45,327 nucleotides of DNA from IMG/VR virus record IMGVR_UViG_2737471992_000006. One strand, 5' to 3'. The notes below the pieces were generated by a model. It was not told where the DNA came from. It saw only the letters and a program-made list of their open reading frames with translations, and made no database searches. A program made the translations under genes and the position numbers. Positions 21,818 to 36,548 of this stretch are shown one piece after another; the stretch's first letter is position 1, and the number at the start of each line of letters is the position of its first letter. Origin of the DNA: a virus. Taxonomy: Duplodnaviria; Heunggongvirae; Uroviricota; Caudoviricetes.

Positions 21818-22035
21818 CAGAACCTCGCCAGCCGGTACCCGGGATGCCCCCGTCGTCGTGTAATCAGAGCCGCAAGGCGGCGCTCCCACTCCTGCCGTCC
21901 CTGCCGGATCTCAGATAAGTTTTCCATGGTCATCTGCTGACCATTAAAGGTGACGGATTTTCCGTCCAGCACCGCCATTTCAGCTTCCGTATAACGCTGA
22001 ATCATGGCTTCGATATCATTCTGGTTCATAACCAT
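21817..22035 (-). CDS. W: gpW-like head-tail joining protein
   Basis: 72 aa; C-terminus RRRGHPGYRLARF resembles lambda gpW; its start overlaps the large-terminase stop. Confidence 0.75.
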   Translation of the reverse strand: MVMNQNDIEAMIQRYTEAEMAVLDGKSVTFNGQQMTMENLSEIRQGRQEWERRLAALITRRRGHPGYRLARF

Positions 22036-24128
22036 CCTCCGGAAGTCAGCCAGGGGTTAACATCGTCAGTTACTGTTTTCTTCCGTTTTTGTTTTTTAAC
22101 AGGCGTGGATACCGGTTCCGGTGAGGGTGACGGTTCGGTACTGTCCGGGACACACTCCAGCCAGGTTTCCCGGCTCGCCCACTCCGGTGCATCCGGCCAG
22201 CGGATCTTTTCGTATCCATGCAGAATGACCAGAGCCTCGGCATACACCATCAGGTCAAAAGCTTCATTGGCACCGCGACCCGGCTTACTCCATTTCCCGT
22301 CACTACTCCGCTCTTCATACGTCAGTTCGTCGTAAAACCAGCTCCCCAGCCAGTCAGGGAAATGCACATAGCCGGGACCTGGCGAGTCACGCCATAACGC
22401 GTTATTCACCCGGTCTTTCAGGGCATCCGTCTGAAGAAGCCAGAGCGGCACATCACCTGCGGCCTGCGCCCGTCGGCCCGTTCGTCCGGTGTTATCAGGG
22501 AATGTACGGGTGATCAGTTTTGCGCGCCGGATGCTGTCGCCCTTAAACAGGTAAATACGTTTACCAAGGCCATCACGACGGCAACGACGCCAGAATTTAT
22601 AGGCATTATCAGTGACCCCGTCTTCACCACCGGAGTCCACCGCCATTGCCATCAGTCGCATTTGTTGAGAAGGATCGGAGGCCAGCGGCCAGCTTTTATG
22701 AAAAACATCCGTCAGCAGGACATCCCAGTCTTCCGGATAGCTGGCCGGATCAATTCGCTGGCTCTCCCCGTCGCTGTCACCGCGCAATGACTGCGTGATG
22801 TTGTAACGATCAATAATCCAGCGTTCGCCACGGCTGCCATAGCCCGTTACCTGAACCACAAAACGGCGATGACGTCCCGCCTGCACATCCACTGTCGCCA
22901 CAAGGAAATTAACGCCATCTGGCACACTGCGGGAAGGAACTGGCTCTGCCCGCTGCTCAAGCAGTTCACTTTTTCGTTGCTCCATGCTGGCACGGGGAAG
23001 ATAAGGTAATCCCCAGTCGGTATTGATAACCGTCTTGAGTGTTTCTTCACTTCCGGTTGTCTCGTATTCCTGTTCTGCAGTAAGCAGTTTGTAAACGAGT
23101 TGCGAGAGTGTCTGGTAAGCAGCTGCCGGACCCTCCATCCAGAATGACGCAATACGTGAGCGTCGGGGATCACCATAACGACTGCCATCCGCATTGATGG
23201 ATTCACCATCCCGCAACCAGACCCCACGTCCGTTCAGCTCACGTTTTTGTTCAGGCATAATCCGTCCTGAACAGGAAGGACACTGAATATAAGCCGCCTC
23301 ACTTGCCAGCACGGGATCGGCAATATCACGGAAACCAGCAACCACATCGCCGCAGGGCTGAAAATACTCACCACAGTGTGGACAGGGCCAGTACCAGCGA
23401 CGGCGATCGCCACGGTTATAGAGCGACAGTATCCCCGTGGTTGGTGGAGCCTCATGCGGTGAAGTCCGTCGCCATTTCACATCCTTCACATCCCTGCCGG
23501 GGGAACTCTCCACCAGCGTCATACCACTGGACATAAATGTGGTGGTACGTTTTGAGGCAAGAGAGAAGGCATCCCCCTCGCCATCAATATCTTCCGGAAA
23601 ACGGTCATAATCCGTCAGCGCCACGCATTTATAATCTGATGAGGACATGATATTGACTGACGGCCAGCCGATTTTCAGGTAGTTGCCAGCAAGGAATGTT
23701 CTGTCATAAACGTTGTTGTCATTTTTGTTCGGACTCAGGCGACTGACCACTTCCGGGCTGACGCGAAACGTTCTGGCAAGTCGTTTTTTGGAGTGTTCGC
23801 GGGCTTTTTCCTCCGTCATCTGAATGATCAGCATATCAGCAGGATCGCAAATCACATTGTAAATCACCCAGCCGTCAATCAGGCCGATAGTCTTGCCAGT
23901 TCGTGCCGGGCCAACAAATATCACTGCGTCGTATTCACGCGAGGCCAGGCAGTTCATCGGCTCAATAACATACGGTGCCACCAGCGGATCCCACGGGACT
24001 GAATTCCCGGCCCCCATGGGCACCCGCATATACTGAGCAACGGCATCAGCAACCCGCATTCGTCTCGGTGCGCGAAGGATATAACCTGAATCGGTTCGTG
24101 CTGCCTTTGCGGTTTCCTGATTCAGCAT
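22026..24128 (-). CDS. terminase large subunit (lambda gpA-like)
   Basis: 700 aa; ATPase region (VGPARTGKT) and C-terminal nuclease region collinear with lambda A. Confidence 0.9.
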   Translation of the reverse strand: MLNQETAKAARTDSGYILRAPRRMRVADAVAQYMRVPMGAGNSVPWDPLVAPYVIEPMNCLASREYDAVIFVGPARTGKTIGLIDGWVIYNVICDPADMLIIQMTEEKAREHSKKRLARTFRVSPEVVSRLSPNKNDNNVYDRTFLAGNYLKIGWPSVNIMSSSDYKCVALTDYDRFPEDIDGEGDAFSLASKRTTTFMSSGMTLVESSPGRDVKDVKWRRTSPHEAPPTTGILSLYNRGDRRRWYWPCPHCGEYFQPCGDVVAGFRDIADPVLASEAAYIQCPSCSGRIMPEQKRELNGRGVWLRDGESINADGSRYGDPRRSRIASFWMEGPAAAYQTLSQLVYKLLTAEQEYETTGSEETLKTVINTDWGLPYLPRASMEQRKSELLEQRAEPVPSRSVPDGVNFLVATVDVQAGRHRRFVVQVTGYGSRGERWIIDRYNITQSLRGDSDGESQRIDPASYPEDWDVLLTDVFHKSWPLASDPSQQMRLMAMAVDSGGEDGVTDNAYKFWRRCRRDGLGKRIYLFKGDSIRRAKLITRTFPDNTGRTGRRAQAAGDVPLWLLQTDALKDRVNNALWRDSPGPGYVHFPDWLGSWFYDELTYEERSSDGKWSKPGRGANEAFDLMVYAEALVILHGYEKIRWPDAPEWASRETWLECVPDSTEPSPSPEPVSTPVKKQKRKKTVTDDVNPWLTSGGWL

Positions 24129-24619
24129 TACTCCTCCTGCTGTAATTCCTCCTCATCATCCGCACCTGCTTCGGTCACCCGCAGGGCTATCTGATCGCGC
24201 AGATCATCAATAATGGACTGAACACGGCTCACAGCGGCAGGCTGCAGGCCGCAGTCACGTTCCAGAATATCCGGTAATGTCTCCAGCACCTGCACGACCG
24301 CTTTTGCCCAGATGGCAAACTCCCGTCTGACATCACTGGCCGGAATGAGTTGTGCCGTTTCCTGTTCGAACTTAAGACGCTCACGTTCAGACTGATACCA
24401 GGCTTTGCGTTCATGTGGATCCATTTCGCCCTCAGCAACCGGCGGTGGTAACCCCATAAATTCAGTCAGAATATCGGTCAACCGGTATAGCTTGAGTTTG
24501 TCATGTCCACCAGCGGGACGAATGTTTTTCAGTCTTGCCACGACAGTCTGGCGGTGCAGACCAGATAAAGCCGCCAGTTGATTAATATTCAGCACCAGGT
24601 TTTTCAACTCATGATCCAT
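24128..24619 (-). CDS. terminase small subunit (Nu1-like, winged-helix N-terminus)
   Basis: 163 aa, GGAGGA Shine-Dalgarno, acidic C-terminal tail; directly upstream of the large subunit with a 1-nt overlap. Confidence 0.85.
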   Translation of the reverse strand: MDHELKNLVLNINQLAALSGLHRQTVVARLKNIRPAGGHDKLKLYRLTDILTEFMGLPPPVAEGEMDPHERKAWYQSERERLKFEQETAQLIPASDVRREFAIWAKAVVQVLETLPDILERDCGLQPAAVSRVQSIIDDLRDQIALRVTEAGADDEEELQQEE

Positions 24620-24760
24620 ATTTCCTCCGGAGAGCTTTAAACATGCATCGTGCGAACAACTTTAAGAAAACGCGTTCGATGTCGAACAAAAAACACTCAA
24701 TTCGACATACAAAAAACAAATAATCATTAATAATCAATAAGATGAAAAGATGATGGTGGC
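24620..24760. other. putative cos / terminase-recognition region
   Basis: Immediately upstream of the Nu1-like start; 8-bp inverted repeat ATGTCGAA (24679..24686) / TTCGACAT (24701..24708) within GTTCGA motifs, followed by an A-rich tract. The cosN nick site could not be located. Confidence 0.35.
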
Positions 24761-24861
24761 CGATAAAAATGCAAAAACTAGCCTTTTTCCGCGACGCTCA
24801 CGCCCCGTGGCAGGCCACCCCACCGGGAGGACCCGTCAGCCTGACAGCCATGACGAACGTC

Positions 24862-25137
24862 TTATACAGCCCTTGCATGAATGGCATCGGGATAATCCAG
24901 AAAGGAATAGCATCGACCCACAAGAATCTGTGTGAGTGTCCTGTTTCTTCCACCCCCGCACAGGACTGGCGAGCATGAGGGACAACCCCGCGAACCATAA
25001 CCGCGCTGATGACAGGACTGGCCCGGCTTGTATTGCTTCCAGCCTTCGCTTTTGTGGCTTTTGCAATAGCCTGACGGATCTGTGGTGGTATTGCGGTAGC
25101 CGCGACCACGGCAGGTTTTTGGGGTTCGTGGGGGCAT
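24862..25137 (-). CDS. Cys-rich small ORF, possibly a degenerate HNH-type endonuclease gene
   Basis: ATG at 25137 preceded by GGAG; the 91-aa product is Cys/Arg/Gly-rich. Neighbouring frames carry HNH-tail-like fragments (LSRCHSC), so the gene may be frameshifted. Low confidence. Confidence 0.25.
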   Translation of the reverse strand: MPPRTPKTCRGRGYRNTTTDPSGYCKSHKSEGWKQYKPGQSCHQRGYGSRGCPSCSPVLCGGGRNRTLTQILVGRCYSFLDYPDAIHARAV

Positions 25138-25360
25138 ATGTACTCCAATGAAGAAGCCACCAACATAGCCTCCTCCATTTATCGTGAAACTATTTTCATC
25201 TACCCAGTAATGAATTCTTTGAAGAGTCGAGATCAATACAACTCACTGATGGGAGAGGCTTGTCTCACGCGTAAGGCAAGTTTCCTGTTTGATTTACTGG
25301 ACAGTATAGGGGGGCAGAATGCCTTCCTCACTCGAATCACATCAATTAAGGAGGTTCAAC

Positions 25361-25483
25361 ATGTTTCATTCCACAAGTCATCAGGCTGTAATTATGGCAG
25401 CATCAGTTTGTGCCACAGACCTTTTCCGCTTCACTTTGAGCCTGATTCATTTCTACCTGACCGGCTCGCCTCTATCTTTCTAA
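25361..25483 (+). CDS. 40-aa small ORF with a strong ribosome-binding site (not in the ORF track)
   Basis: TAAGGAGGT, 6-nt spacer, ATG at 25361, TAA at 25481..25483; moderately hydrophobic product. Could be chance. Confidence 0.2.
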   Translation: MFHSTSHQAVIMAASVCATDLFRFTLSLIHFYLTGSPLSF

Positions 25484-25632
25484 TCCCCGATTTATCCAAA
25501 TTTCACTGCCATAATGCCGACATTCTCTGCCATTGTTGGCTCCGTTTATCCGTTAAAAGGGATATCAGTTAAGTTATCCCGTGCAGGGTATAAGCCATTA
25601 TCAAACCCACCCGTAGATAGGCTTTGTAATGG

Positions 25633-26151
25633 CTACTTCTTCAGAAATGATTCGATGAATTCACGTCGAGGATGACGATAGTTCAGAATATCTTCTGGCA
25701 TCCTCATAAAGCGGTTGTTGCCGTCTTTGGCAGTAACAAAACAGCTGTGAACTCCGCAGACATCCGTTTTGATCGTGTCGCTATACTCAAAAAGCAACTG
25801 AGCCATCTTCTCTTGCCATTCTGGAGGCATAGCCTCCATGAATACTCGCGGCATCACGCAGAACGACGCATGCGTAAGACCAAACCACAGTTGCAGGTCT
25901 TTACGATATTCTTCATCCATCGTCTTTACCTTTGTTGCAATAAAAAGCCCCGCGAATGCGAGGCTAAATCCTGGTGTTTGTGATGACTGGCTCTTATCTA
26001 AACGCAGCCCCTTACCGCGCGCCAAATGCTCAACTTTAAGCATCAGCAATGAGATGTTTAATCTGGATTCACTCCAGAAGTGATCACCACCCTGTCTACA
26101 GAACCAGATGTGAAGGATGATGAGTAAAATTATCTCTATCATCGAAGGCAT
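25633..26151 (-). CDS. hypothetical protein between Rz and cos (possible N-terminal transmembrane helix plus cytoplasmic domain)
   Basis: 172-aa ORF directly after Rz/Rz1; an internal start at MDEEYRK (~95 aa) is also possible; family not recognised. Confidence 0.5.
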
Positions 26152-26606
26152 TGCGTCCTGATATATTCCTGAAGCGTTCTCAGTGCTGTCTGGTCTCTGA
26201 TGATTCCGTCCCGGATACCGAGAACGTTTCGTCCAGCAACTGGAGAGAGTTCGACGGTGGCATCATTGCCCATACCGGAGGCGCTGGAGGTTTCGGCTGA
26301 GGATGGCACAGGGCATTTTCCTTTGACGAACACCCGACCACCATTATCAAGCTTGCGCCGAAGAGCATCATTTTTAGCTTTCGCATCAGCTAACTCCTTC
26401 GTGTATTTAGCATCGAGTGCATCAGCAGCACGCTGGCGCTGCTGCATGTCAGTAATGGTGGCGGTCGCCTGCTTCAGCTCACTGACTTTTTTATCACGCT
26501 GTTCTTTATAGGCGATGGCGTTATCACGATAATGATTGACCGCCCACGACAGGCAGACGATGATGCAGATAACCAGAGCATAAATAATCGCGGCGACTCT
26601 GCTCAC
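26139..26606 (-). CDS. Rz: i-spanin Rz
   Basis: Lambda Rz-like ([27 protein letters not shown]...); GTG at 26606 overlaps the endolysin stop (GTGA). Confidence 0.85.
26180..26386 (-). CDS. Rz1: o-spanin Rz1 (lipoprotein embedded in the +1 frame of Rz)
   Basis: 68 aa with a lipobox (VVGC) and Pro-rich segment, nested wholly inside Rz as in lambda. Confidence 0.8.
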
Positions 26607-27136
26607 TGATCTATCCCCCAACAGGCTAATGCGCTTTCCTGGTCACGACGAATAACTTGCCCATAGCAGTTATTTGAACGTATGCGGCAATCGCGCCCAC
26701 CATCTTTTATCCACCAGCGAATCGCCTCGCATGCACCTTTACGATCACCAGCATTCAGCCGCTTATAAAACGTCGACGGAAAACACTTACCGGGGCCAAT
26801 GTTATAGGGACAAAATGACGCGATACCCGCTTTTTGTGGCTCGGTCAGTGGTACTTTAATATTGCGCTCCACCCATGCCAGCGCCTTATCACGCTCAATG
26901 GCGTTGACCTGGTCGCATTTTTCCTTCGACAGTTTCATACCGGGAAAAACGGGTTTTCCATCCACCATCGTGGCACCCCGACAGATGGTCCAGATGCCGG
27001 ACCCATCGCGGTATGCCGTTGTGTGGTTACCTTCTTTTTCATCCAGAAACTGGTCGAGAATATCAGGCGCGGGCGCACCGACGGCAATCAGTGCCAGAAC
27101 GGCAGCCGACAGGCCGTATCTGATTTTTGCGTTCAT
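26603..27136 (-). CDS. R: SAR endolysin (T4-lysozyme-like muramidase with N-terminal signal-anchor-release domain)
   Basis: 177 aa; N-terminal weakly hydrophobic Gly/Ala-rich segment ([16 protein letters not shown]) followed by a lysozyme catalytic region, as in phage 21 and P1 endolysins. Confidence 0.85.
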
Positions 27137-27199
27137 GGATATTTATCAGGATTTATCGGTTTCTGCCCACGGACAGGTTTATCTGTTCCGGTCAGTGAC

Positions 27200-27550
27200 T
27201 TAAGGTTGTGATTCCGGAGGAGTCTTCAGAGAACCAGTAATCCTTCCCGGTAGCTTTCCTTTGTAGGTTATCCATACATTCTGCGCCTCTAAAATTACGG
27301 GGCGCTTTTCCGGCGACTGCTCATCCCCTTCACATAACCCGGCAGCGACATCCAGGAAGACCTGTCTGATGCTCCTTCTGGCCGCTGCCTCATAAAACTC
27401 CAGCGCAGCACCTTCAACACGGTCCAGCGAGATGTCCAGGTCAAAAATTTCACCGTCAAAGCGTTCTTTGTCCTGTAATGCTAAAGTTACCGTAACTTTA
27501 TTCTCAAAATTGCGGATCCCTTTCACAATCAGTTCATAGTTTTGAGTCAT
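27200..27550 (-). CDS. hypothetical soluble acidic protein inserted between holin and endolysin
   Basis: 116 aa; GGGGAG Shine-Dalgarno; the ATG lies 5 nt after the holin stop; no transmembrane segment. Confidence 0.6.
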   Translation of the reverse strand: MTQNYELIVKGIRNFENKVTVTLALQDKERFDGEIFDLDISLDRVEGAALEFYEAAARRSIRQVFLDVAAGLCEGDEQSPEKRPVILEAQNVWITYKGKLPGRITGSLKTPPESQP

Positions 27551-27554
27551 TGAA

Positions 27555-27770
27555 TTACTCTCCCCGTGCAGCCTTACGCTTGTCTTCTTTAATCTTGAAA
27601 TAAAGGTTTGTCAGATACGTCAGCAAGCCAAATACCAGACTACCCAGCACACCTATTGCCGCCCACTGTGAGGGCGTGACTTTATCGAGCAACTGTAAAA
27701 ACCAGTACCCGGCACTACCTGCTGAGGTGCCATAGGCGACACCCGTTGTTAACTTATCCATGGATTTCAT
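27555..27770 (-). CDS. S: class II pinholin (S21-like) with dual-start motif
   Basis: Near-identical in pattern to phage 21 S ([13 protein letters not shown]...[11 protein letters not shown]...NLYFKI.ED.RKAARGE); ATGs at 27770 (M-K-S-M) and 27761 give the antiholin/holin pair; GAGGTGG Shine-Dalgarno. Confidence 0.9.
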
Positions 27771-27802
27771 AACCCCACCTCGCAGATGCGGGTGCTGTGT
27801 AA

Positions 27803-27831
27803 TGGAAATAAAAAGGCCACCTGACGTGGCC
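27803..27831 (-). terminator. intrinsic terminator between the methyltransferase gene and S
   Basis: Minus strand GGCCAC-GTCAG-GTGGCC followed by TTTTTATTT. Confidence 0.6.
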
Positions 27832-27837
27832 ACCAGA

Positions 27838-28890
27838 TTATTTCCCCACCAGCTCGTTTATCTCTTTCACTGTCTGGTTAAACCGCTCTGACTCAAGCTC
27901 AACACCTAAGGCCCGACGCCCCAGCGCCATTGCTGCTTTTATTGTGGAACCGGATCCCATAAAAAAATCAGCAACCAGATCACCAGGTCGACTACTGGCA
28001 TTGATTATTTGCCTGAGCATATCCGCCGGTTTCTCACACGGATGTTTACCCGGGTAGAACTGAACGGGTTTATGCATCCAGACATCGGTATAAGGCACGG
28101 AGACTGATACGGAGAAATAGCGCCGGAGAGATTTAAACTCATCCAGCAATTCAGAATATTTGCGATTCAGTGAATCATAAGATGCCACCAGCTGGTGGTG
28201 TGGTTGTTCCAGTTGTTGTTCCTGAAACTTCTCTGCCGCTATACGGGAAAACAGTGCCTGTAACTTCCGATAGTCAGCCTCATTCGGCAACTGCCACTGA
28301 CTGGCACCAAACCAGTGGGAAACCATATTTTTCTTACCTGTGGCTTCGGCAATTTGTTTTGCCGTTATACCCAGTTCGGCACGAGCATCCCTGAAATACG
28401 ATATCAGCGGTGCCATTATGTGCTGTTTGAGTTCCCTTTCTTTTGCCGCATAGCCGTCACTTTTGCCGCGATATGGCCCCTGGTAATGTTCAGCAAACAG
28501 AACGCGCTCTGTGGCAGGAAAATATGCGCGCAGACTTTCTTTATTACACCCATTCCAACGTCCGGACGGCTTCGCCCAGATGATATGGTTAAGCACGTTG
28601 AAACGTTCACGCATCATGATCTCAATATCAGATGCCAGGCGATGCCCACAGAACAGGTAAAGGCTTCCGGCAGGTTTTAACACCCGCCAGAACTGGGCCA
28701 GACAGTGGTCCAGCCACTTAAGGTAATCTTCGTCCCCTTTCCACTGATTGTCCCAGCCGTTGGGTTTCACCTTGAAGTACGGCGGATCGGTAACAATCAG
28801 GTCAATGGAATCATCAGGCAGGGACTGAATAAAATGCAGGCAATCAGCGTTGATTAAATCAACACTGTTTATTTTTACAGTATTTTTCAT
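27838..28890 (-). CDS. orphan DNA amino-methyltransferase, beta-class (DPPY before FxGxG)
   Basis: 350 aa; motif [10 protein letters not shown] near the N-terminus and AdoMet motif FFMGSGST near the C-terminus; no restriction partner nearby; weak Shine-Dalgarno. Confidence 0.8.
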
Positions 28891-29040
28891 GGATCAGTAA
28901 GCGTAACTCTGGTAGGCTCACTCTGCTTTTGCGCTAAAGCAGTGGGCCGTGGTTCGCTTGTGACCAGTAAGCATGAGCGAATGGCTGGCAGGTGCTACCA
29001 ACACCCACCAGCCGCCCATTTTCACAGCAGGAAACCGCCA

Positions 29041-29268
29041 TTACTGGCAGCGTCTGAATTTATTCCCGTACCCGCCGTTATCCTTCGCCAGACCCGCCAG
29101 AACTAACTGAGTCAGTATTAACTGGCACCGGGCTTCGCTTACTCCGGTAGTTCTCGTCATCATGCGTGGCGTTACCCACTTGTCAGCAGGTAAGAAATGA
29201 AGGACTGCTGCGGCGGTTTCTGTCATATCTTGCTGTTTTAGCATGTCTTTTTCCCTTCTGGTTAACAT
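29041..29268 (-). CDS. small winged-helix-like protein (unknown function)
   Basis: 75 aa; helix-turn-helix-like stretch (TTGVSEARCQLILTQLVLAGLA); weak ribosome-binding site, so only moderately supported. Confidence 0.4.
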   Translation of the reverse strand: MLTRREKDMLKQQDMTETAAAVLHFLPADKWVTPRMMTRTTGVSEARCQLILTQLVLAGLAKDNGGYGNKFRRCQ

Positions 29269-29362
29269 GACATACCAATAACTCTTGTCTAAAAAGCCAG
29301 CAAGATAAAAAGTCAGTATTCACGACCACCAGCGTGTTTACTGTACTGCACCAGGTTTACAG

Positions 29363-29390
29363 GTACAAAAAAACCGCTCAGCGGCGGGTT
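29363..29390 (-). terminator. intrinsic terminator (tR' candidate)
   Basis: Minus strand AACCCGCCGCTGAGCGG hairpin followed by TTTTTTT. Confidence 0.5.
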
Positions 29391-29421
29391 TAAGTTGTGT
29401 GGCGAAGTAACCACTCTTAAC

Positions 29422-29450
29422 AGCATATTTGATTTTTTACGATTGTAAAC
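29422..29450 (-). promoter_or_regulatory. candidate late promoter PR' (TTTACA -35, 16-nt spacer, TATGCT -10)
   Basis: Sigma70-like hexamers on the minus strand between Q and the 29363 terminator; purely sequence-based. Confidence 0.2.
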
Positions 29451-29452
29451 GG

Positions 29453-29480
29453 TTGATTATTCATCTCCAATAAAAATAAT
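29453..29480 (+). promoter_or_regulatory. promoter of the lipoprotein moron (TTGATT -35, 16 nt, AATAAT -10)
   Basis: Hexamers ~35 nt upstream of the lipoprotein ATG. Confidence 0.35.
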
Positions 29481-29514
29481 TGTGTGGGTATGCCCTTAAC
29501 AATGGATAAGAAAC

Positions 29515-29961
29515 ATGAATAAAATGACTGTATTATTACTTAGCGCAACTATCATTTCAGGTTGTACTTCTTCCGTACCATTGATAAAGAAAACTCAATC
29601 AGGAAAACCTGAGGGGGTTTATCAAAATACGACAAAAGATAAAGTCAAAGATGCCCTTGTGAATTACTGCAATAGTAGAGGGTTGATAATTTACAACGCG
29701 GATAACAGCAGTGTTATATGTGGTAAAGAACTGGAAGGCGGGTCTGCTGTTTTTGGACAAATGTTAATCGGCAATGCCTATTCAACAACCCCGGTATCAA
29801 AAGTCAAATTTACTATCGCTCAAGTTAATAACGATACAAAAGTGTGGGCCGATATGTGGATGGAAACTCAAATGGCAATGGGGCAAGTACAACAAATGGC
29901 TATAACAGACAACGCAAGCAAAAACACTATCCAACAACGTCTTGATGAATTAAAACCTTAA
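29515..29961 (+). CDS. lipoprotein moron (signal peptide + lipobox ISGC), unknown function
   Basis: 148 aa, AT-rich codon usage, opposite strand to all flanking phage genes, with its own promoter and a downstream hairpin. Confidence 0.75.
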   Translation: MNKMTVLLLSATIISGCTSSVPLIKKTQSGKPEGVYQNTTKDKVKDALVNYCNSRGLIIYNADNSSVICGKELEGGSAVFGQMLIGNAYSTTPVSKVKFTIAQVNNDTKVWADMWMETQMAMGQVQQMAITDNASKNTIQQRLDELKP

Positions 29962-29982
29962 GTAAATTAATTAAATAAAATG

Positions 29983-30004
29983 GGGAGAATAAATCGACTC
30001 CCCA
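29983..30004. terminator. bidirectional hairpin between the lipoprotein gene and Q
   Basis: GGGGAG-N10-CTCCCC; the T-rich run is on the minus-strand side (after Q), weaker on the plus side. Confidence 0.4.
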
Positions 30005-30045
30005 CACATTAAACTGATTCAATTACCCCCTTAATAAGAGGTCTT

Positions 30046-30411
30046 CTAACGATCCATCTCTAGCTCAATTTCTAACATCATTAACATGCCATCAACTACA
30101 CCTTCAGCCTTTTGCAATAAACGCCCAACCCAGCAATCAGAACGCCCATGTTTACGGGCAAGCGCCATAAACGTCATACCACCTACATAATAATCCACTA
30201 ATAAATCGTGCAAATCGCTGTTGTTCTTTTTCAGGCGAGCCATGCATCCACAAATGATCATCGCGTCATCGTCACAACATTGCGGGCGGGATTTTACTTT
30301 TGAAGGGATTAGTCCTTTAAATCCTGCAGCAATAGACGACCAAGTGACATCCTCGTGATTATTTGCCACCCATGCCCCCCAACGTTCAAGAACCATTTGA
30401 ATATCACGCAT
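30046..30411 (-). CDS. Q: late-gene antiterminator Q (phage 21/82-type small Q)
   Basis: 121 aa from the ATG at 30411 (GGAG Shine-Dalgarno); [14 protein letters not shown]...CGCMARLKK pattern of Q21-family antiterminators. Confidence 0.8.
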
Positions 30412-30428
30412 CAACTTTCTCCACAAAA

Positions 30429-31424
30429 TCAGGCCAGCACGCCAATTGCCAGCGCACGATCGATAAAACGAAATATCAGCTCCAGCTGGGAGCCATACTT
30501 CTCTTCAAATGCCACGGTATCCGCATGCAGCTCGTCGTGATGCTTTCTGCACAAAGGCAACACAAAAAGGTCATGCGCTTTTGTTCCCATTCCACCCTGA
30601 CCGTGACCTATCAGGTGGTGGGGATCATCAGCAGGCTTTCCACAACATGCACACGGCTGTGTCTTAACCCAGCGCGTGTACTTTTCATTAACCCAGCGGC
30701 GGCGTTTTGGGCGTAACATAAAAGACTCCGGCGACTCCGGATCCACTTTCAGCGCCAGCACCTTTTTTGCCTTATCCTGGATGATGCTGGTGGCAGGAAC
30801 CGAAGGCACAAGGTCACTTTCCCGGGTGACAGACGGCACAACAGGCTTTGGTAATCTCAGTGCCTTACGGGCTGCACTTTCCGGTAAGGCATCCGCCAGG
30901 TCATTACGAATCAGCCACCAGCACAGTTCCGGCATTGTCACAACGTGACTATCATCAAAACCGAGATCCCGACGCACAACAGACAACACCCAGCGGGCAC
31001 AGTTATCCGTTGCCATTGATTCCAGCCGTTCCGTGAACTGATCGCGCAGCTGGTTATCGCAGTGCCAGCACAGACGGATTGCGCCCGGAGCGTGTCGCAT
31101 TGTGGTCATGTTCTCGCTGTGCCAGTCGGAATGAGGCCACTGGCAGCCTTTTTCACGAAGTAACCAGCTTTCAAGACATTCCACGCCACCAGCACGACGG
31201 ATCACTGCCTCATTGCGGAACACGGCCCGAACGGCAGGATCATCCGCCAGCGGTTGTGATGCCGCCGGAACGGCACCACTGGCGAAAGATGAATAACGTT
31301 CCGGCTCAGGCTCCAGCAGAACACGCCCCTGCATAAACAGGGGCATCAGCTCTGAACCTGGCCTGAACAATACGATCCCCATACGCGGGGCAATTTCAGG
31401 GGTCAGTAGTGCTCTCACGGTCAC
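30429..31424 (-). CDS. DUF968-family protein with C-terminal HNH-like zinc motif
   Basis: C-terminal CACCGKP..DPHHL...[12 protein letters not shown]; usual position upstream of Q. Start uncertain (GTG at 31424 or ATG at 31382). Confidence 0.7.
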
Positions 31425-31425
31425 C

Positions 31426-32235
31426 TCAATGAACGGTATCGAGCAGCTTTAACAGCTCAGGGAATCGGGATTCGAAGAAATGCGGCTGCGTCTCGCGCGG
31501 ATTTGCAGGACTGGTGATGTTCTTGCCGAACATGCAGCCTTTCGCCGTCAGCGACCAGAATTTTTTGATGTTGTTAATCGCGGTACGGCTGTATCGTTCG
31601 CGTTGTTCAACGATCCCCAGCTTCACCATCTGGTGATATGCCTGATTAGCCGTCAGGCGGATACCATACTGCTTCAGCAGTGCACTCAGCGACAGCGTGG
31701 GGCGACTTGAGCCATCAGGCGCGTCAGCAGGAGCATCAATGGCATAGCGTGGTGCCAGATTCGGTAAGCCAACAGCCTCCTGAAGCTTCTGACAGGCTCC
31801 AAGCACTGATGAGTTAGACAGATTTAATTCCCGGCGCATAAAGTCCAGCAGGATCACGCCAGCCTGCATCTTGTCAGCAGCCTGTCCGGATAATTTTTCC
31901 GGTGCGCTGGTTACCATGTCGAAAGTACGGATCACCTTCAGATGGAATGACGGGCTGATCCACATTGCATAGGCATACACCAGTTCTTTGCAGACATACG
32001 TCCCCTGGTTATTTCCGCCATTAATGACGCTAACTGGTTGATTTTGTTCCAGAGGCGGAATTCCACCCTCGGTGAAAAGTTGTTCAATCAATTCACAGGT
32101 TTGCTTATTGGAGAGCCAGTATTTCGGGCGGTTTTTTTGTTCTCCCCCGGCAGCCCTGTGCAGATCGTTCAGGCTGTAACGCCCATAAGCATCACGACGA
32201 ACTTCAATACCATCAATGACCATCAGATTATTCAT
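31426..32235 (-). CDS. KilA-N domain protein
   Basis: 269 aa from the ATG at 32235 (GAGGAG Shine-Dalgarno); N-terminal KilA-N-like region (VIDGIEVRRDAYGRYSLNDLHRAAG...KYWLSNKQT). Confidence 0.75.
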   Translation of the reverse strand: MNNLMVIDGIEVRRDAYGRYSLNDLHRAAGGEQKNRPKYWLSNKQTCELIEQLFTEGGIPPLEQNQPVSVINGGNNQGTYVCKELVYAYAMWISPSFHLKVIRTFDMVTSAPEKLSGQAADKMQAGVILLDFMRRELNLSNSSVLGACQKLQEAVGLPNLAPRYAIDAPADAPDGSSRPTLSLSALLKQYGIRLTANQAYHQMVKLGIVEQRERYSRTAINNIKKFWSLTAKGCMFGKNITSPANPRETQPHFFESRFPELLKLLDTVH

Positions 32236-32254
32236 ACTTCGTTTCTCCTCTTGA

Positions 32255-32644
32255 TCAGGCGGCTGCACCCGCCGTTTTCTCGTACTTACTGATGGTGATC
32301 TCGACCTTCCCTTTCGGGATAACCGGTCCCCACTCCACCAGCATTCTTTTCACCTGTCTGTCGTCTTCCCACACACCCGCGTGGGTCAACGCGTCAAACA
32401 GCGCCTTGTTATAGTTGTCCAGATCGCGGATCCGGTTATCCGGAGGAAACAACACGATCTCCACTGCAGCAGGTGCCGACGTTGGTTTTGGCAGACGACG
32501 TAACTGCTCAACTATTGCTGCGCACGCCGCGCTCTGAAATTTTCGCCCCGCCGCGCTTATCAGGCTCTTACCAGCAAATGCCCCTTTGTTGGGGTGTCGC
32601 CAGTACGTGTTCACGCTGGGCGGGAAAGGCAGGATCAGCTTCAT
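32255..32644 (-). CDS. rusA: RusA-family Holliday-junction resolvase
   Basis: 129 aa; LPFPPSVNTYWRH ... RDLDNYNKALFDALT pattern. Confidence 0.85.
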   Translation of the reverse strand: MKLILPFPPSVNTYWRHPNKGAFAGKSLISAAGRKFQSAACAAIVEQLRRLPKPTSAPAAVEIVLFPPDNRIRDLDNYNKALFDALTHAGVWEDDRQVKRMLVEWGPVIPKGKVEITISKYEKTAGAAA

Positions 32645-32967
32645 ACTTTCAGGCCTCTCTCATGTAACCAGTGGGCTGCACGCAGCCTGGCGTTTTCCTC
32701 ACCGGCAAGCAGTGAGCGGATAATCCCGACCGCCTCGCTGTCGTCGTCCTTCACCGCGGTATGAAGCGTGATACCCCGGGCCACGCCACGCTTTATCGTG
32801 ATGACGCCTTTTTTCTCCAGTGCGCGAAGATGTTCCACCGCTGCATTCACTGAACGGTATCCCAGCATGGTTGCCACCTCCTGATTGGTTGGCGGGAAGC
32901 CACGTTCTTTCTGGTAAGAAATCAGCATATCCAGCACCTGCTGCTGGCATTGAGTTAACGTCGTCAT
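32641..32967 (-). CDS. LexA N-terminal DNA-binding-domain homologue lacking the S24 peptidase domain
   Basis: 108 aa; strong resemblance to the LexA N-terminal domain (QQ.VLD.I......GFPPT..E.A..LG.RS.NAA.EHL.AL..KGVI.I..G.ARGI.L); no Ser/Lys dyad region. Confidence 0.7.
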   Translation of the reverse strand: MTTLTQCQQQVLDMLISYQKERGFPPTNQEVATMLGYRSVNAAVEHLRALEKKGVITIKRGVARGITLHTAVKDDDSEAVGIIRSLLAGEENARLRAAHWLHERGLKV

Positions 32968-33617
32968 GCCGCCATCTCCCTGACCAGTTTTTCCGCCTGC
33001 TGGCGAACCTGCGCCAGAAACGCCTCACCACATGCCTCAAGTTCATCACGCCCGATGTAGCTGATTGCCGGTCCCTTCCAGGTCTTGTCGAAAACAGCAA
33101 TAGCACCAGCGAAGAAAGCGCCTGTCGGCACCTGCTTCTCGTCCTTCGGTATAAACCAGGCAGGCAGTTCAAAACCAATACGCCCGCGAATAAAAGCAAT
33201 ATGATCTGCATCTTCCGGCCACCACACTTCGCTGGTGGCCGCTTTGATCAGGAAAACATAGCGCCCGCCCTTATCACGCATGGCACTGGCATGTTTCATG
33301 ATGTAACGCATGCCGGTGATGTATTGCCCCTCATGCTGACTGGCGCGGCTGTATGGGGGATTACCAAAGGCAGCACCTTTAAGCTCCGCAAGACGTTCTG
33401 ACCAGTCATGCGCCAGCGCGTTATCTTCCGCCGTGTAATACGCGGCACATTTGGCGTTATCACCGTCAGTAAACAGATCCAGAACAAACGGGCCAAACAG
33501 GGTGTTAATTCCCCAGAAAATGTTGTCCGGCGTGCGCCACTGATCGCCCACTTCCTTCAGTTCATGGGCTGGTTTGTTCCGCAGTTCCACCAGCGCCTGG
33601 CAATATTTATTACTCAT
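32964..33617 (-). CDS. phage Dam-type N6-adenine DNA methyltransferase (NPPY)
   Basis: 217 aa from the ATG at 33617; motif AFGNPPYS. Confidence 0.75.
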   Translation of the reverse strand: MSNKYCQALVELRNKPAHELKEVGDQWRTPDNIFWGINTLFGPFVLDLFTDGDNAKCAAYYTAEDNALAHDWSERLAELKGAAFGNPPYSRASQHEGQYITGMRYIMKHASAMRDKGGRYVFLIKAATSEVWWPEDADHIAFIRGRIGFELPAWFIPKDEKQVPTGAFFAGAIAVFDKTWKGPAISYIGRDELEACGEAFLAQVRQQAEKLVREMAA

Positions 33618-34105
33618 TAAGCCCCCACGTAATTCCCTGAGAGATACCACTCTTCACCTGATGCAGCCCGCTTACTGCTTTTCCGTAAACACCGTTCACG
33701 ACGCGCCAGAAAATTGTTTCGTTCTGGCTGGGAGTGGCTTTCACGGAATGCCGCCATCCACACGGTTGCAGCACGACGGTATAAGCCCCTGGACTCCAGT
33801 TCTTCAGCCTGGCGGGTCAGGCACAAAATCACCCGTGGATCGTTAGTGCCGACATAGAAATTGCGCACAGGTCTGGTTTCTCGAACTGGTTGTGGTTCCG
33901 GTTCCTGCGCTCTCTCAGTCAGGCGTGGGAAATGTCTGCGTGTATCTCCTTCACAACGGTGAGCCACACGCCCACTCTGACGTAACTTGCTTGCTGACTG
34001 CAGAACGCGCTGCCGTGAGTAACCTGCAAAAGCATCCGCAATGTCTCCGGAAGTACACCCCGGATGGGCTTCAATGAATTTCTGAACTTCATTCAAAAGA
34101 CTCAT
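33617..34105 (-). CDS. PerC-like transcriptional activator candidate
   Basis: 162 aa; C-terminal LESRGLYRRAATVWMAAF resembles the PerC/Pch motif as I recall it; provisional. Confidence 0.4.
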   Translation of the reverse strand: MSLLNEVQKFIEAHPGCTSGDIADAFAGYSRQRVLQSASKLRQSGRVAHRCEGDTRRHFPRLTERAQEPEPQPVRETRPVRNFYVGTNDPRVILCLTRQAEELESRGLYRRAATVWMAAFRESHSQPERNNFLARRERCLRKSSKRAASGEEWYLSGNYVGA

Positions 34106-34107
34106 GA

Positions 34108-34926
34108 TCACCCCCTGAATCCTGCCGGGATCTGGCTGTAGTCCACGTTGTCGTAACTGGCTTTGAAGTACGGGTCCTCGCGTCTGGCTGCAGATACCGC
34201 AGGAACTTCCCAGGATTCTTCGAAATGACGATCCGGACCAAAGAACGTGACAGCCTGTTTCACAAATTGTGTGCCGCTGTTACCCATCGCAGATACCCAG
34301 CCCGCGTAGCGTTTCACACCTTCCAGCATGGTTTCGGGGTTTACTCCCTCATTCAAACGGGCTTTCCAGGCTTTGAAGGCTGCAGATTTTGAATTGCCAC
34401 CAGCACGTTTGGGATATGCCAGCCATGCCTGCTCAAACTCCGGAGAGTATTCCGGTCGGTTTGAACGAACTCGCACGGACTCATCAACTGATGCACCAAC
34501 AGCTATTGGTTCATTGACTGGTTCTTTGACTGGTTCAAAAGAGTGACTGGTTCTGGGTGAATCTCCTGCACTACCCCCTGGTGCAACTCCTGCACTACCT
34601 GGTGAATTTGCTGCACCAGATAGTGAATTATTTGCACTACCCCCTAGTGAATCTCCTGCACCATCCAGATGAAGGAGATAGATATTACTTGAGTTACCTT
34701 TTTCACCTTTCCGGGTGACTTTTTTTACCAGCCCGGACTCACAGAGGGCCGCAATATGATTCATCACAGAACGTTTGCTAATCTCGCACTGATCAGCGAT
34801 ATGCTGATAGCTGGGCCAGCACTCACCCTGATCGCTGGCATTATCAGCCAGCTTGATCAGAACTAGTTTTCGCAATGGATTACCCACTCGAATTTTCATC
34901 GCTTTCACCATCAGCTCCATACTCAT
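34108..34926 (-). CDS. replication initiator (lambda O-like, iteron-binding) containing the origin
   Basis: 272 aa; winged-helix N-terminus, Gly/Ser/Ala-rich linker encoded by the iterons, C-terminal domain; GGAGGTG Shine-Dalgarno. Confidence 0.75.
   Translation of the reverse strand: MSMELMVKAMKIRVGNPLRKLVLIKLADNASDQGECWPSYQHIADQCEISKRSVMNHIAALCESGLVKKVTRKGEKGNSSNIYLLHLDGAGDSLGGSANNSLSGAANSPGSAGVAPGGSAGDSPRTSHSFEPVKEPVNEPIAVGASVDESVRVRSNRPEYSPEFEQAWLAYPKRAGGNSKSAAFKAWKARLNEGVNPETMLEGVKRYAGWVSAMGNSGTQFVKQAVTFFGPDRHFEESWEVPAVSAARREDPYFKASYDNVDYSQIPAGFRG
34511..34705. repeat. origin of replication: 3x GACTGGTTC and ~5 iterons (CTGCACTACC..TGGTGAAT at ~22-bp spacing) plus AT-rich tract
   Basis: Direct repeats at 34515..34556 and 34567..34672, then an AT-rich segment at 34673..34705, all inside the O-like gene as in ori-lambda. 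Confidence 0.6.
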
Positions 34927-35159
34927 GCTGCACCTCCGAGATGCTTCATGTTTTTTCCGGAGCGAAAGGTTATAAGCGGCATACTGACGCGGTAATTACG
35001 GCCCAGCGGTTCACAAATCACTTTCTGACATTCACGGTCAACCAGGCTAACACGTAGAACATGCCCTGCAGGCGTGGTGTACCACTGCCCAACTGTAGGA
35101 ATTGATGTTTTTTTACGCTGAAGTAAACGGCGAATATTGAGGCTCAACAGATTAAGCAT
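34923..35159 (-). CDS. small basic protein translationally coupled to the replication initiator (cII position)
   Basis: 78 aa; GGAGGG Shine-Dalgarno; its stop overlaps the O-like ATG (ATGA). Confidence 0.5.
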   Translation of the reverse strand: MLNLLSLNIRRLLQRKKTSIPTVGQWYTTPAGHVLRVSLVDRECQKVICEPLGRNYRVSMPLITFRSGKNMKHLGGAA

Positions 35160-35988
35160 GACGATGCCCTCCGCTGATATTCAGGAGACGGTGAATATGA
35201 AAATTAGCCTTATCCGCCAGACGAATACGTTCAGCCTGCAAGTTAAGAAGGGTTTCTACCAAAACCTGATGCGCCTGCGGATCCGAAAGAGTTACCTTGC
35301 GCAGAGCACGTAGTGCAGTTGTTACATAACTGAGTTTATGTAAGTCTTCATCATTCAGACGAGTGAGGGCTGGGACAGTAGCCATGATGGCAGCCTCCTT
35401 GATCGGTGAAATACTTCCATCACCGGAAACGCCAATTTCGCTGGTGGTGAACTGAACGGGGTTGGCGTAACCGGTGATCAAGGAAACCGGCGCATCTTTC
35501 GATGCCCCCGCCCAGCCCACCATAACTTTGATGTGAGCAAATGCGGACGATAAAAAAGACGCTGGCGCGTCATATATCGCCTTGATCAATTCCAGGACGC
35601 CAATCCCGGCACCCGCTTTATAAGGTGCCTGAACAGTGTAACGTCCCGGAATGGCAGAATCAATGTGCTGGTGGTCCTTCACACTCAACAAAATCACGCC
35701 TGAATTTCCACAAAGGACTAAAGCACTCATGCGGGTAGTCTTTGCGAAGATAGATAACGCGCTGTGTTTCTGGCTCCCAACGAATAACATGAACATAAAG
35801 TCCTCTTCTGTCACGAAACCAGCGGTTAAGTTCCTGCACAACTCGCCCCCCACAGTCAGGTAAAGTTCTCTGTGGTTACTTACAGCCAGGTGATTTGGTA
35901 ATCTGCATTCATGCCGTAACAACAGGTGTTCAGCGACGCTGGCCACCAGCTGTTGCGACAAACGGTTATTTGCCGTTAAACTGTTCAT
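35152..35988 (-). CDS. hypothetical 278-aa protein in the early-right operon
   Basis: ATG overlaps the upstream stop (ATGA); no recognisable motif (no Walker A box). Confidence 0.6.
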   Translation of the reverse strand: MNSLTANNRLSQQLVASVAEHLLLRHECRLPNHLAVSNHRELYLTVGGELCRNLTAGFVTEEDFMFMLFVGSQKHSALSIFAKTTRMSALVLCGNSGVILLSVKDHQHIDSAIPGRYTVQAPYKAGAGIGVLELIKAIYDAPASFLSSAFAHIKVMVGWAGASKDAPVSLITGYANPVQFTTSEIGVSGDGSISPIKEAAIMATVPALTRLNDEDLHKLSYVTTALRALRKVTLSDPQAHQVLVETLLNLQAERIRLADKANFHIHRLLNISGGHRHA

Positions 35989-36548
35989 GCGTTAGTTTCT
36001 CCACAGACACAAAACGCCACGACGCCCGGAGCTGCACACTCGCGGGCGTCACTCTTTTCTGGAGCGCAAAAGATTTTGTAGACCAGTGCTGCATGCTCCT
36101 GGAGCTTCGAAATTGACAGATACAACTCATCATTAATTGCTGTCTGCTCGTGTGGCTCCACTACCCCATCTTCGATTGCCGAACGAATCTGCTTTGAGTA
36201 ACTCCCGATCTGTTCGATGACTTCCAGCAGGCGCTGGTTTATATCGGCGTTCTCTACTTCCTCAATTTCAGGAAGCGATACAAACACCCCACCAGCAGAC
36301 TGTGCGACAGCATCCGCAATGTAGTGAGTGCCAGCCGCGCGCTGTAAAATCATTGCCCATCCCAGCGGGAAAATCTGATCGCCATCGGCACGAAGGCGGT
36401 TAAATAATGCGTTCTCTGTTACATCCAGCCACTCAGCAGCTTCAGCGTAACCCCCCGGCAACGCCGCGATAGTTTTTCTGACAGCTTTCACGTACCACTC
36501 AGGCTGTTTTTCTACTTTCCAGTGATGCTTACCCACGGTTAGCCTCAT
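35985..36548 (-). CDS. hypothetical 187-aa protein, first gene after cro (possible CII-like/YdaT-like regulator)
   Basis: Position and operon coupling only; the YdaT assignment is a guess. Start may be the GTG at 36536. Confidence 0.5.
   Translation of the reverse strand: MRLTVGKHHWKVEKQPEWYVKAVRKTIAALPGGYAEAAEWLDVTENALFNRLRADGDQIFPLGWAMILQRAAGTHYIADAVAQSAGGVFVSLPEIEEVENADINQRLLEVIEQIGSYSKQIRSAIEDGVVEPHEQTAINDELYLSISKLQEHAALVYKIFCAPEKSDARECAAPGVVAFCVCGETNA

Follow-up and report, generated by a model that had tools for sequence, protein, structure and literature searches.

Phages of the lambda-like cohesive-end group, to which Gifsy-type phages belong, have 12-nt cohesive ends that vary naturally in bp 7–12 while the left half is conserved, and possess in cosQ a highly conserved 7-bp site (PMC4669245); for mEp213/LLS, whose heads are Gifsy-2-like, a 12-nt 5′ overhang has also been inferred (PMC12315714). 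The genes of zinc-ribbon HNH endonucleases, for their part, adjoin cos and the terminase (PMC3592412). The subject of the present analysis is the corresponding region of the IMG/VR virus record IMGVR_UViG_2737471992_000006, a stretch of 45,327 nt that is referred to below, at its full length, as the window, and which is a lambdoid Escherichia coli prophage with its late genes on the minus strand. Within it, attention was centered on the interval between the lysis gene Rz and the small terminase gene terS (24620–26151).

A first-pass annotation, made from the letters of the DNA, had described this interval as a poorly coding slot, of the kind that often holds a bor-type moron or an HNH endonuclease, and had noticed in it a membrane-anchored protein of 172 aa, an open reading frame (ORF) of 91 aa rich in cysteine, a small ORF of 40 aa (ORF40) and, at the terminase end, cos-type repeats. 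In all probability, the interval is an ordinary mosaic junction, the right end of a lambda-type cos prophage built by several recombination events. Of its components, three most likely function and four are debris, the latter being derived from at least two other phage lineages, and the 172-aa ORF, the 91-aa ORF, ORF40 and a piece of a spanin gene are very probably by-products of this assembly.

Block Structure of the Interval

Of 5426 complete E. coli genomes, just 23 possess the whole interval in one piece (at least 80% coverage), while 3789 have parts of it, which already indicates a mosaic origin. Local blastn of the window against annotated relatives, namely the E. coli strains EC9682, R11, E10, MS20653 and JBEHAAB-19-0176 and the phages PhiR40_1, Ayreon, mEp460, SfIV, vB_EcoS-569R6 (569R6 in what follows), HK620, HF4s and JEP4, divides the interval into separate blocks with sharp boundaries: (i) 25937–26151, common to nearly all the strains and phages compared; (ii) 25635–25936, common only to HF4s and the close E. 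coli relatives; (iii) a linker without any gene (25524–25592), situated between a long stem-loop, hairpin 2, and the SfIV-type block, with matches of 88–94% identity in the P22-like HK620, HF4s and JEP4 (25524–25610) and in PhiR40_1 and Ayreon (25545–25633); (iv) the SfIV-type block (24991–25522), common to SfIV (85%) and 569R6 (92%); (v) and finally, everything below 25005, common to PhiR40_1 (98.6%), mEp460 and Ayreon. With lambda's own right end, the interval showed no similarity by blastn.

PhiR40_1, mEp460, Ayreon and cdtI possess the same head/terminase module as the window, and are 86–98% identical to it in Rz, the ORF50 frame, the terminator T1, hairpin 2, the cos-upstream block, cos, terS and the large terminase gene terL. 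They differ in that they have neither the cassette carrying ORF95 nor the SfIV-type block, the latter being replaced by a 135-bp piece related to the bor-lambdap78 spacer of lambda.

The description of the interval as poorly coding is borne out, as between 24740 and 25632 no ORF other than the HNH piece has a family match. Likewise, a promoter scan of 24500–26300 found none on either strand, and Rfam returned only sub-threshold chance matches (ST7-OT4_3 with 28.8 bits where 50 are required, and AbsR28 with 17.3 bits). With regard to the supposed occupants of the slot, a remnant of an HNH gene is indeed present, but no ORF of the interval matches Bor in Pfam or PHROG, and the bor gene of the relative 569R6 has no counterpart in the window. 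Late transcription would proceed from Rz/Rz1 through ORF50, T1, the ORF95 cassette, and hairpin 2 with its linker to the SfIV-type block, and from there through cosQ, cosN and cosB to terS (DUF1441) and terL (gpA).

The Predicted Cos Site

The terminase genes on which the interval borders are, on the minus strand, terS (24128–24619), a DUF1441 gene (PF07278, E 4.6e-44; phrog_141, E 2.7e-77), and terL (22026–24128), of the lambda gpA type (PF05876, E 8.5e-72; PF20454, E 1.1e-85). Homology gives good support to the prediction of a lambda-like cos site adjoining terS, so that the placing of cos at the terminase end in the first-pass annotation has held. The site, also on the minus strand, would comprise a cosQ-like heptamer GGGTCCT (24828–24834), located by alignment with the ends of the lambda record and ending 22 nt before the predicted nick; a predicted cosN (24794–24805), with the 12-nt 5′ cohesive end GGGCGTGAGCGT; and an AT-rich cosB-like segment (24620–24793) that extends between cosN and the terS ATG and includes the palindrome GTTCGACATCGAAC. 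A gpA-type terminase would nick cosN and leave 12-nt 5′ ends, as in lambda.

This prediction is based, firstly, on the minus strand of 24780–24860, which can be aligned to the lambda record once the ends of the latter are joined, the segment ACG/GGGCGTGAGCGT/CGCGG containing the predicted end. The 12-mer is identical to that of lambda (GGGCGGCGACCT) in 7 of 12 bases, and the flanks ACG/GGGCG and TCGCGG are common to both. Secondly, the records of cdtI and Tritos start with GGGCGGGAGCGT and end in ...CCACG, that is, at the predicted nick point and according to the lambda convention. The record ends of mEp460 and Ayreon were also considered as cos ends and were discarded, given that both records were opened arbitrarily at terS (PMC5764929), and a literature search for the literal cohesive-end 12-mer matched only an unrelated paper.

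The distance from cosN to the terS ATG is 175 bp, with an AT-rich tract and no clear IHF consensus, and the cosB-like block is conserved in PhiR40_1 and mEp460. Two repeats of the TTGTTCG type (24653–24659 and 24683–24689), separated by 30 bp, belong to the seven TTGTTCG sites that the window contains; they are putative TerS sites and probably correspond to the cos-type repeats of the first-pass annotation. Compared with the lambda-like group (lambda, 21, N15, Gifsy-1; PMC4669245), the window has in common the cosQ heptamer, practically as far from the nick (22 nt, and 23 nt in lambda), the conserved nick flanks, a similar distance between cosN and the terS ATG (some 175 bp, and 190 bp in lambda) and a gpA-type TerL. 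In contrast with lambda itself, its TerS is of the DUF1441 type instead of Nu1; its cosB repeats are unrelated to the R sites of lambda, and its ends are predicted from sequence.

The cohesive end of the window differs from that of lambda at bp 6–9 and 11, whereas those of its relatives differ at 7, 8, 9 and 11. The additional difference is found at 24800 (A on the plus strand; position 6 of the cohesive end), where the window has GGGCGTGAGCGT and 22 of 24 related sequences have GGGCGGGAGCGT, among them strains that are 98% identical and the functional phages PhiR40_1, cdtI and Tritos. This private G-to-T change may signify an impaired packaging of the window prophage, or it may be a sequencing error; it falls in the half of the cohesive end that is sensitive according to lambda genetics, and bears on whether this prophage can be packaged. 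The likely cos site of this group of prophages is now fixed at a position that can be checked directly.

A block of 53 bp upstream of the predicted site (24938–24990) is 98% identical to DNA of the lambda-hybrid phages 2B8 and Lambda_4C10. There it lies about 125 bp from the right ends, and here 132 bp from the predicted nick; given the similarity of these distances, the block appears to travel with cos.

The HNH Remnant and the SfIV-Type Block

The SfIV-type block, of 0.53 kb and about 85% identical to Shigella phage SfIV, consists of the last 30 codons of an o-spanin gene, a 290-bp spacer and the first 50 codons of an HNH gene. The o-spanin remnant (25434–25523, minus strand) corresponds to residues 84–113 of SfIV gp53 (80% identity, E 6e-12 in tblastn) and contains an internal stop. 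The HNH remnant (24988–25137, minus strand) represents the zinc ribbon at the N-terminus of an HNH endonuclease of the packaging type: residues 1–50 of the SfIV protein (gp54) are found in it with 41 of 50 identical (82%, E 6e-30 in tblastn), and it matches phrog_144 over 1–49. One of the four ligands of the ribbon (CxxxxC ... CxxH) has been lost through a change of Cys14 to Tyr.

It is this remnant that opens the cysteine-rich ORF of the first-pass annotation, which does exist as a frame of 91 codons (24862–25137, minus strand) starting at ATG 25137 behind a GGAG 5 nt upstream. The frame was, however, attributed to an HNH gene decayed by frameshifts, with tail-like fragments in the neighboring frames, and of this only the HNH origin can be retained: in tblastn with the HNH proteins of SfIV and 569R6 at E<=10, residues 1–50 alone were found and residues 51–116 appeared in no frame. 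Pfam matched no frame of the three on the minus strand, the catalytic core (beta-beta-alpha-metal, His-Asn-His) was not found in any of them, and for the 91-aa frame PADLOC, NCBIfam and Pfam gave nothing. PGAP, for its part, annotates the piece as a pseudogene 'missing C-terminus'.

The HNH gene has been cut cleanly after codon 50, with loss of its catalytic domain, at a recombination junction (24991–25005), where 15 bp are common to the SfIV-type block and the cos-upstream block and the blastn alignments overlap; the homology with HNH-bearing phage DNA ends at 24991. The remaining codons of the frame, 51–91, lie in cos-upstream DNA that PhiR40_1, mEp460 and Ayreon possess without any HNH gene, and are a chance translation. 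Among the 5426 E. coli genomes, 1868 have the two halves of the junction separately, and just 38 have them joined.

It is likely that a lambda-type packaging module was joined to a right end of the SfIV/HK97 type by way of a crossover within the HNH gene. The adjacent terminase consists of a DUF1441 TerS and a gpA-type TerL, and is not of the HK97/P27 type that needs HNH. Terminases of the gpA type need no HNH partner, and for this reason the stub could have persisted after the exchange of the packaging module. In comparison with the packaging zinc-ribbon HNH proteins of the HK97 gp74 class, in phages of the HK97/SfIV type (PMC3592412), the ribosome-binding site and the place upstream of cos are the same; what distinguishes the window is the absence of the catalytic domain, the mutated zinc ligand, and a lambda-type terminase with no use for an HNH partner.

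The segment 25074–25361, which comprises the HNH start and the spacer upstream of it, is present as an exact tandem duplication of 288 bp in strain R11 (L002, 2075–2650) and in several other E. coli genomes, with the duplication junction on the ORF40 ATG, and in JBEHAAB-19-0176 there is a second, more diverged copy of the same segment.

The Spacer and ORF40

The spacer (25138–25430) is non-coding and lies, in SfIV-type phages, between the o-spanin and HNH genes. It could be argued that it has a function, encoding an antisense micro-protein (ORF40) or a small RNA that regulates the HNH or late genes in SfIV-type phages, and that this is why it has been retained here; such a function is improbable. 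In its favor, the spacer is 83–93% identical among SfIV, 569R6 and the window, and its plus strand, which runs antisense to late transcription, contains a hairpin that resembles a terminator and has a T run (25255–25284), with a perfect 10-bp stem in 569R6. Against it, the folding z-scores are −0.49 and −0.38, all Rfam families remain below threshold, there is no promoter-like site on either strand, the terminator-like hairpin is upstream of ORF40 and not downstream, and the HNH gene that would be served is dead here. A frame of 144 aa on the plus strand is broken by indels in the comparison with SfIV and 569R6 and gave nothing in PADLOC, NCBIfam or Pfam. The terminator-like hairpin is a palindrome in SfIV, and there is no known plus-strand gene for it to terminate.

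ORF40 itself (25361–25483, plus strand, 40 aa) is also antisense to late transcription. The first-pass annotation had seen in it an ORF led by a textbook Shine-Dalgarno (SD) sequence, possibly a small membrane peptide, and the ORF does stand behind TAAGGAGGT, although at a spacing of 5 nt (TAAGGAGGT-N5-ATG) and not of 6. Each strand of the 45-kb window contains this 9-mer once. The SD, the ATG and the length of the ORF are the same in SfIV and 569R6, which again favors a functional spacer, and also in the copies gathered from viral contigs, where the ORF is open in 104 of 104, a biased sample inasmuch as the copies were collected with a 20-nt motif containing both the SD and the ATG; among the close relatives there are 18 variants of the peptide.

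The pattern of substitution is not that of a gene. Polymorphic sites are distributed over the three codon positions as 11/11/12 overall and as 10/10/5 in codons 2–21 (51 haplotypes), they are at least as dense as in the non-coding DNA on either side, and between the window and SfIV there are 12 changed codons among the first 23, none of them purely synonymous, a predominance of non-synonymous change that counts against a functional spacer. These codons, 1–23, lie within the non-coding spacer, while the last 17 run antisense to the o-spanin remnant, and the C-terminal half of the peptide is invariant because the o-spanin is constrained in the intact donor phages. The peptide reaches a Kyte-Doolittle maximum (19 residues) of 1.53, borderline for a membrane segment, and had no family match (PADLOC, NCBIfam, Pfam, PHROG), no promoter-like site and no RNA signal. 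Neither in its hydrophobicity nor in its conservation as a peptide does it resemble a small membrane peptide or a type I toxin, and in view of the 11/11/12 distribution, without purifying selection, and of the borderline hydrophobicity, the suggestion of a membrane peptide is abandoned. ORF40 evolves like non-coding DNA and is probably not a gene; there is only a slight chance that it is a real one.

The 172-aa ORF, ORF50 and Terminator T1

The 172-aa ORF (25633–26151, minus strand) is, on the evidence of the compared sequences, a read-through artefact, in which the loss of a stop codon, from TGA to TTA, has fused the ORF50 frame, through a linker, with the separate 95-aa gene ORF95. The PHROG search splits it in two, residues 1–50 matching phrog_11822 over its full length (1–50/50, E 2.3e-34) and residues 33–172 the C-terminal part of phrog_3527; it had no match in Pfam, and the Rz profile PF03245 was not found in it. 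The stop codon of ORF50 (25999–26001) is TTA in the window and in its three closest relatives (L001–L003), and TGA in seven others: PhiR40_1, Ayreon, HK620, HF4s, JEP4 and two E. coli strains. Between the two units is an intrinsic terminator, T1 (25938–25965, minus strand; AGCCTCGCATTCGCGGGGCT then TTTTTATT), with an 8-bp stem, six GC pairs and a T run in the terminator scan and a folding energy of −14.1 kcal/mol, which is kept in PhiR40_1 and whose translated hairpin forms part of the 27-residue linker of the ORF.

PGAP annotates only the 95-aa gene (WP_000343116.1) and treats the first 50 codons as a pseudogene labeled Rz i-spanin, a label due to frameshifted Rz proteins that run into the ORF50 frame, for this frame is also seen as the tail of such proteins. 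ORF50 (26002–26151, minus strand), whose start lies 13 nt before the Rz stop, has polymorphic sites distributed as 6/5/6 over the codon positions, that is, with no coding signature and no third-position excess; as a frame of doubtful coding value, it is not regarded here as an established gene.

The membrane-anchored protein of the first-pass annotation has thus survived as an ORF, with a hydrophobic N-terminus that is real as a sequence, but corresponds to two units and not to one gene, since PGAP and the 30 homologues referred to below place the start of the 95-aa gene at 25920, and the TGA is present in seven relatives. The hydrophobicity, with a Kyte-Doolittle maximum (15 residues) of 2.53 at residue 4, is supplied by ORF50 and lies outside the conserved protein, ORF95 being soluble-looking.

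An alternative is that the loss of the stop was adaptive and tethered the ORF95 domain to the inner membrane by way of ORF50, the product being a new membrane protein associated with lysis, whose translation would be coupled to that of Rz. This would agree with the 13-nt overlap of ATG 26151 with the 3′ end of Rz, with the hydrophobic peak and with the intactness of the fusion in L001–L003 and in a cluster of 65 members. However, the fusion is restricted to a narrow clade of about 98% identity, with no time for visible selection; HF4s, which has the cassette as well, has kept the TGA; ORF50 lacks a coding signature; there is no good SD before ATG 26151; and the hydrophobic run extends over only about 14 residues. 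We therefore hold an adaptive fusion to be very improbable, and continue with the read-through artefact, of which ORF95 is the real gene.

ORF95 and its Cassette

ORF95 (25633–25920, minus strand; 95 aa) is, as far as can be judged from homology, the one real protein gene in the interval, conserved across prophages of the Enterobacterales, and belongs to an uncharacterised phage domain family. A protein search returned a single 172-aa cluster of close relatives and about 30 standalone homologues of 94–105 aa, from Salmonella, Enterobacter, Erwinia, Yersinia, Klebsiella and uncultured phages, each of them beginning with the Met found at position 78 of the 172-aa ORF. Where the gene calls of other homologues extend upstream, the N-terminal extensions are unrelated. 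The protein matches a domain of some 90 residues over its full length (phrog_3527, E 2e-63), with R25, W35 and Y81 invariant, and a profile search gathered 1448 cluster representatives at E<=1e-3, in many of which this domain is C-terminal in proteins of 140–420 aa; ten of these long members showed no informative Pfam domain. For ORF95 itself, PADLOC, NCBIfam and Pfam gave nothing, and a confident AlphaFold model found no fold match in the PDB. Its expression would be from Q-antiterminated late transcripts.

The gene is carried by a cassette of 302 bp (25635–25936, minus strand), placed exactly between T1 and hairpin 2 (25593–25634), the latter being a long imperfect stem-loop formed by an inverted repeat, with a folding energy of −23.2 kcal/mol, which marks the downstream edge of the slot and at whose equivalent place the Ayreon annotation has a terminator feature. 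The G of the TAG stop of ORF95 comes from the flank, that is, from hairpin 2, as read from the junction sequences. The cassette is present in 72 of the 5426 complete E. coli genomes, and PhiR40_1, Ayreon and strain MS20653 have nothing in the slot. The P22-like HF4s (g00059) has the same cassette after Rz, with 82% DNA identity, and differs from the window in having retained the TGA stop of ORF50. In HK620 and JEP4 the flanking linkers are as in the window, and in place of ORF95 the slot is occupied by KilA-N and hkbL (HK620) or by Rha (JEP4 and also JBEHAAB-19-0176). At 25634/25937, lambdoid and P22-like phages have in common a site of cassette exchange, bounded in every case by the same pair of hairpins. 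In view of the Rha in JBEHAAB-19-0176, the C-terminal 140 residues of the 172-aa ORF were compared directly with Rha as a possible tail of that protein, and no homology was found.

In an Erwinia prophage, the ORF95 homologue is also situated between the lysis genes and a DUF1441/gpA terminase, and other homologues adjoin a terminase or a helicase. ORF95 could represent a large, undescribed family of phage domains and, as its cassette is exchangeable and is placed between lysis genes and cos, one might tentatively think of an accessory role, directed at the host or against its defences, rather than of a structural one; this assignment is doubtful.

Weighing of the Evidence

Several points weigh against an interval made up of a cos end, ORF95 and debris. 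The assignment of cos depends on homology and on the opening points of two database records; the 172-aa fusion is intact in its cluster of 65 sequences, and since its start overlaps the Rz stop some translation of it is possible; the openness of ORF40 in all 104 copies is in part a matter of ascertainment, yet a perfect SD at optimal spacing is unusual and has no explanation here; and it is by inference that the recombination events are given a direction and an order. As for the picture of the first-pass annotation, a moron slot with a novel 172-aa protein anchored in the membrane, an HNH gene in decay through frameshifts and a real 40-aa membrane peptide, it is highly improbable, because, although the three ORFs exist, with a hydrophobic N-terminus in the first, an HNH N-terminus in the second, and a perfect SD and 104 open copies for ORF40, the HNH residues 51–116 are in no frame, so that the part concerning the HNH tail is already largely refuted, the 172-aa frame exists only where TGA has become TTA and contains a terminator, the conserved unit is the 95-aa gene, and ORF40 shows polymorphism of 11/11/12 by codon position and a Kyte-Doolittle maximum of 1.53.

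The mosaic junction has little significance beyond its correct annotation, and part of it was already known, as PGAP flags the HNH and 'Rz' pieces as pseudogenes. It does illustrate two traps for annotation: a single stop-codon mutation, together with the insertion of a cassette, is sufficient to produce a convincing-looking 172-aa "membrane protein", and a stub of 50 HNH codons can pass for a cysteine-rich gene. The interest that remains lies in the private change in cosN and in the ORF95 family, ORF95 offering a cheap entry point to an uncharacterised and widespread phage domain.

Other Features of the Window

Upstream of the interval, the late genes follow in the order DNA methylase (27838–28890), holin, YdfR/DUF1327, lysozyme (26603–27136) and Rz (26139–26621), in which Rz1 (26180–26386) is embedded.

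In the relative Ayreon, a coding sequence annotated as 'putative late gene regulator' (127–411) contains a 72-bp piece that is 98.6% identical to the terS-internal positions 24218–24289 of the window and also includes cos-upstream DNA; it looks like a recombination remnant and not a regulator.

Over the whole window there are 18 Chi sites (GCTGGTGG) on the late-gene strand and five on the other, where about 0.7 would be expected per strand; twelve sites form a cluster that extends no further than 12 kb from the right DNA end as predicted (26711–36289, minus strand). This pattern fits the 'right-end clustered Chi' class of lambdoid phages (PMC12315714). Also on the minus strand, Rfam recognizes, both above threshold, a C4 antisense RNA (35440–35527; 82.3 bits) and the Hfq-binding isrK RNA (35552–35628; 64.2 bits). 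RNAs of these two kinds typically belong to the immunity/anti-Q region in Gifsy-like and P1-like phages.

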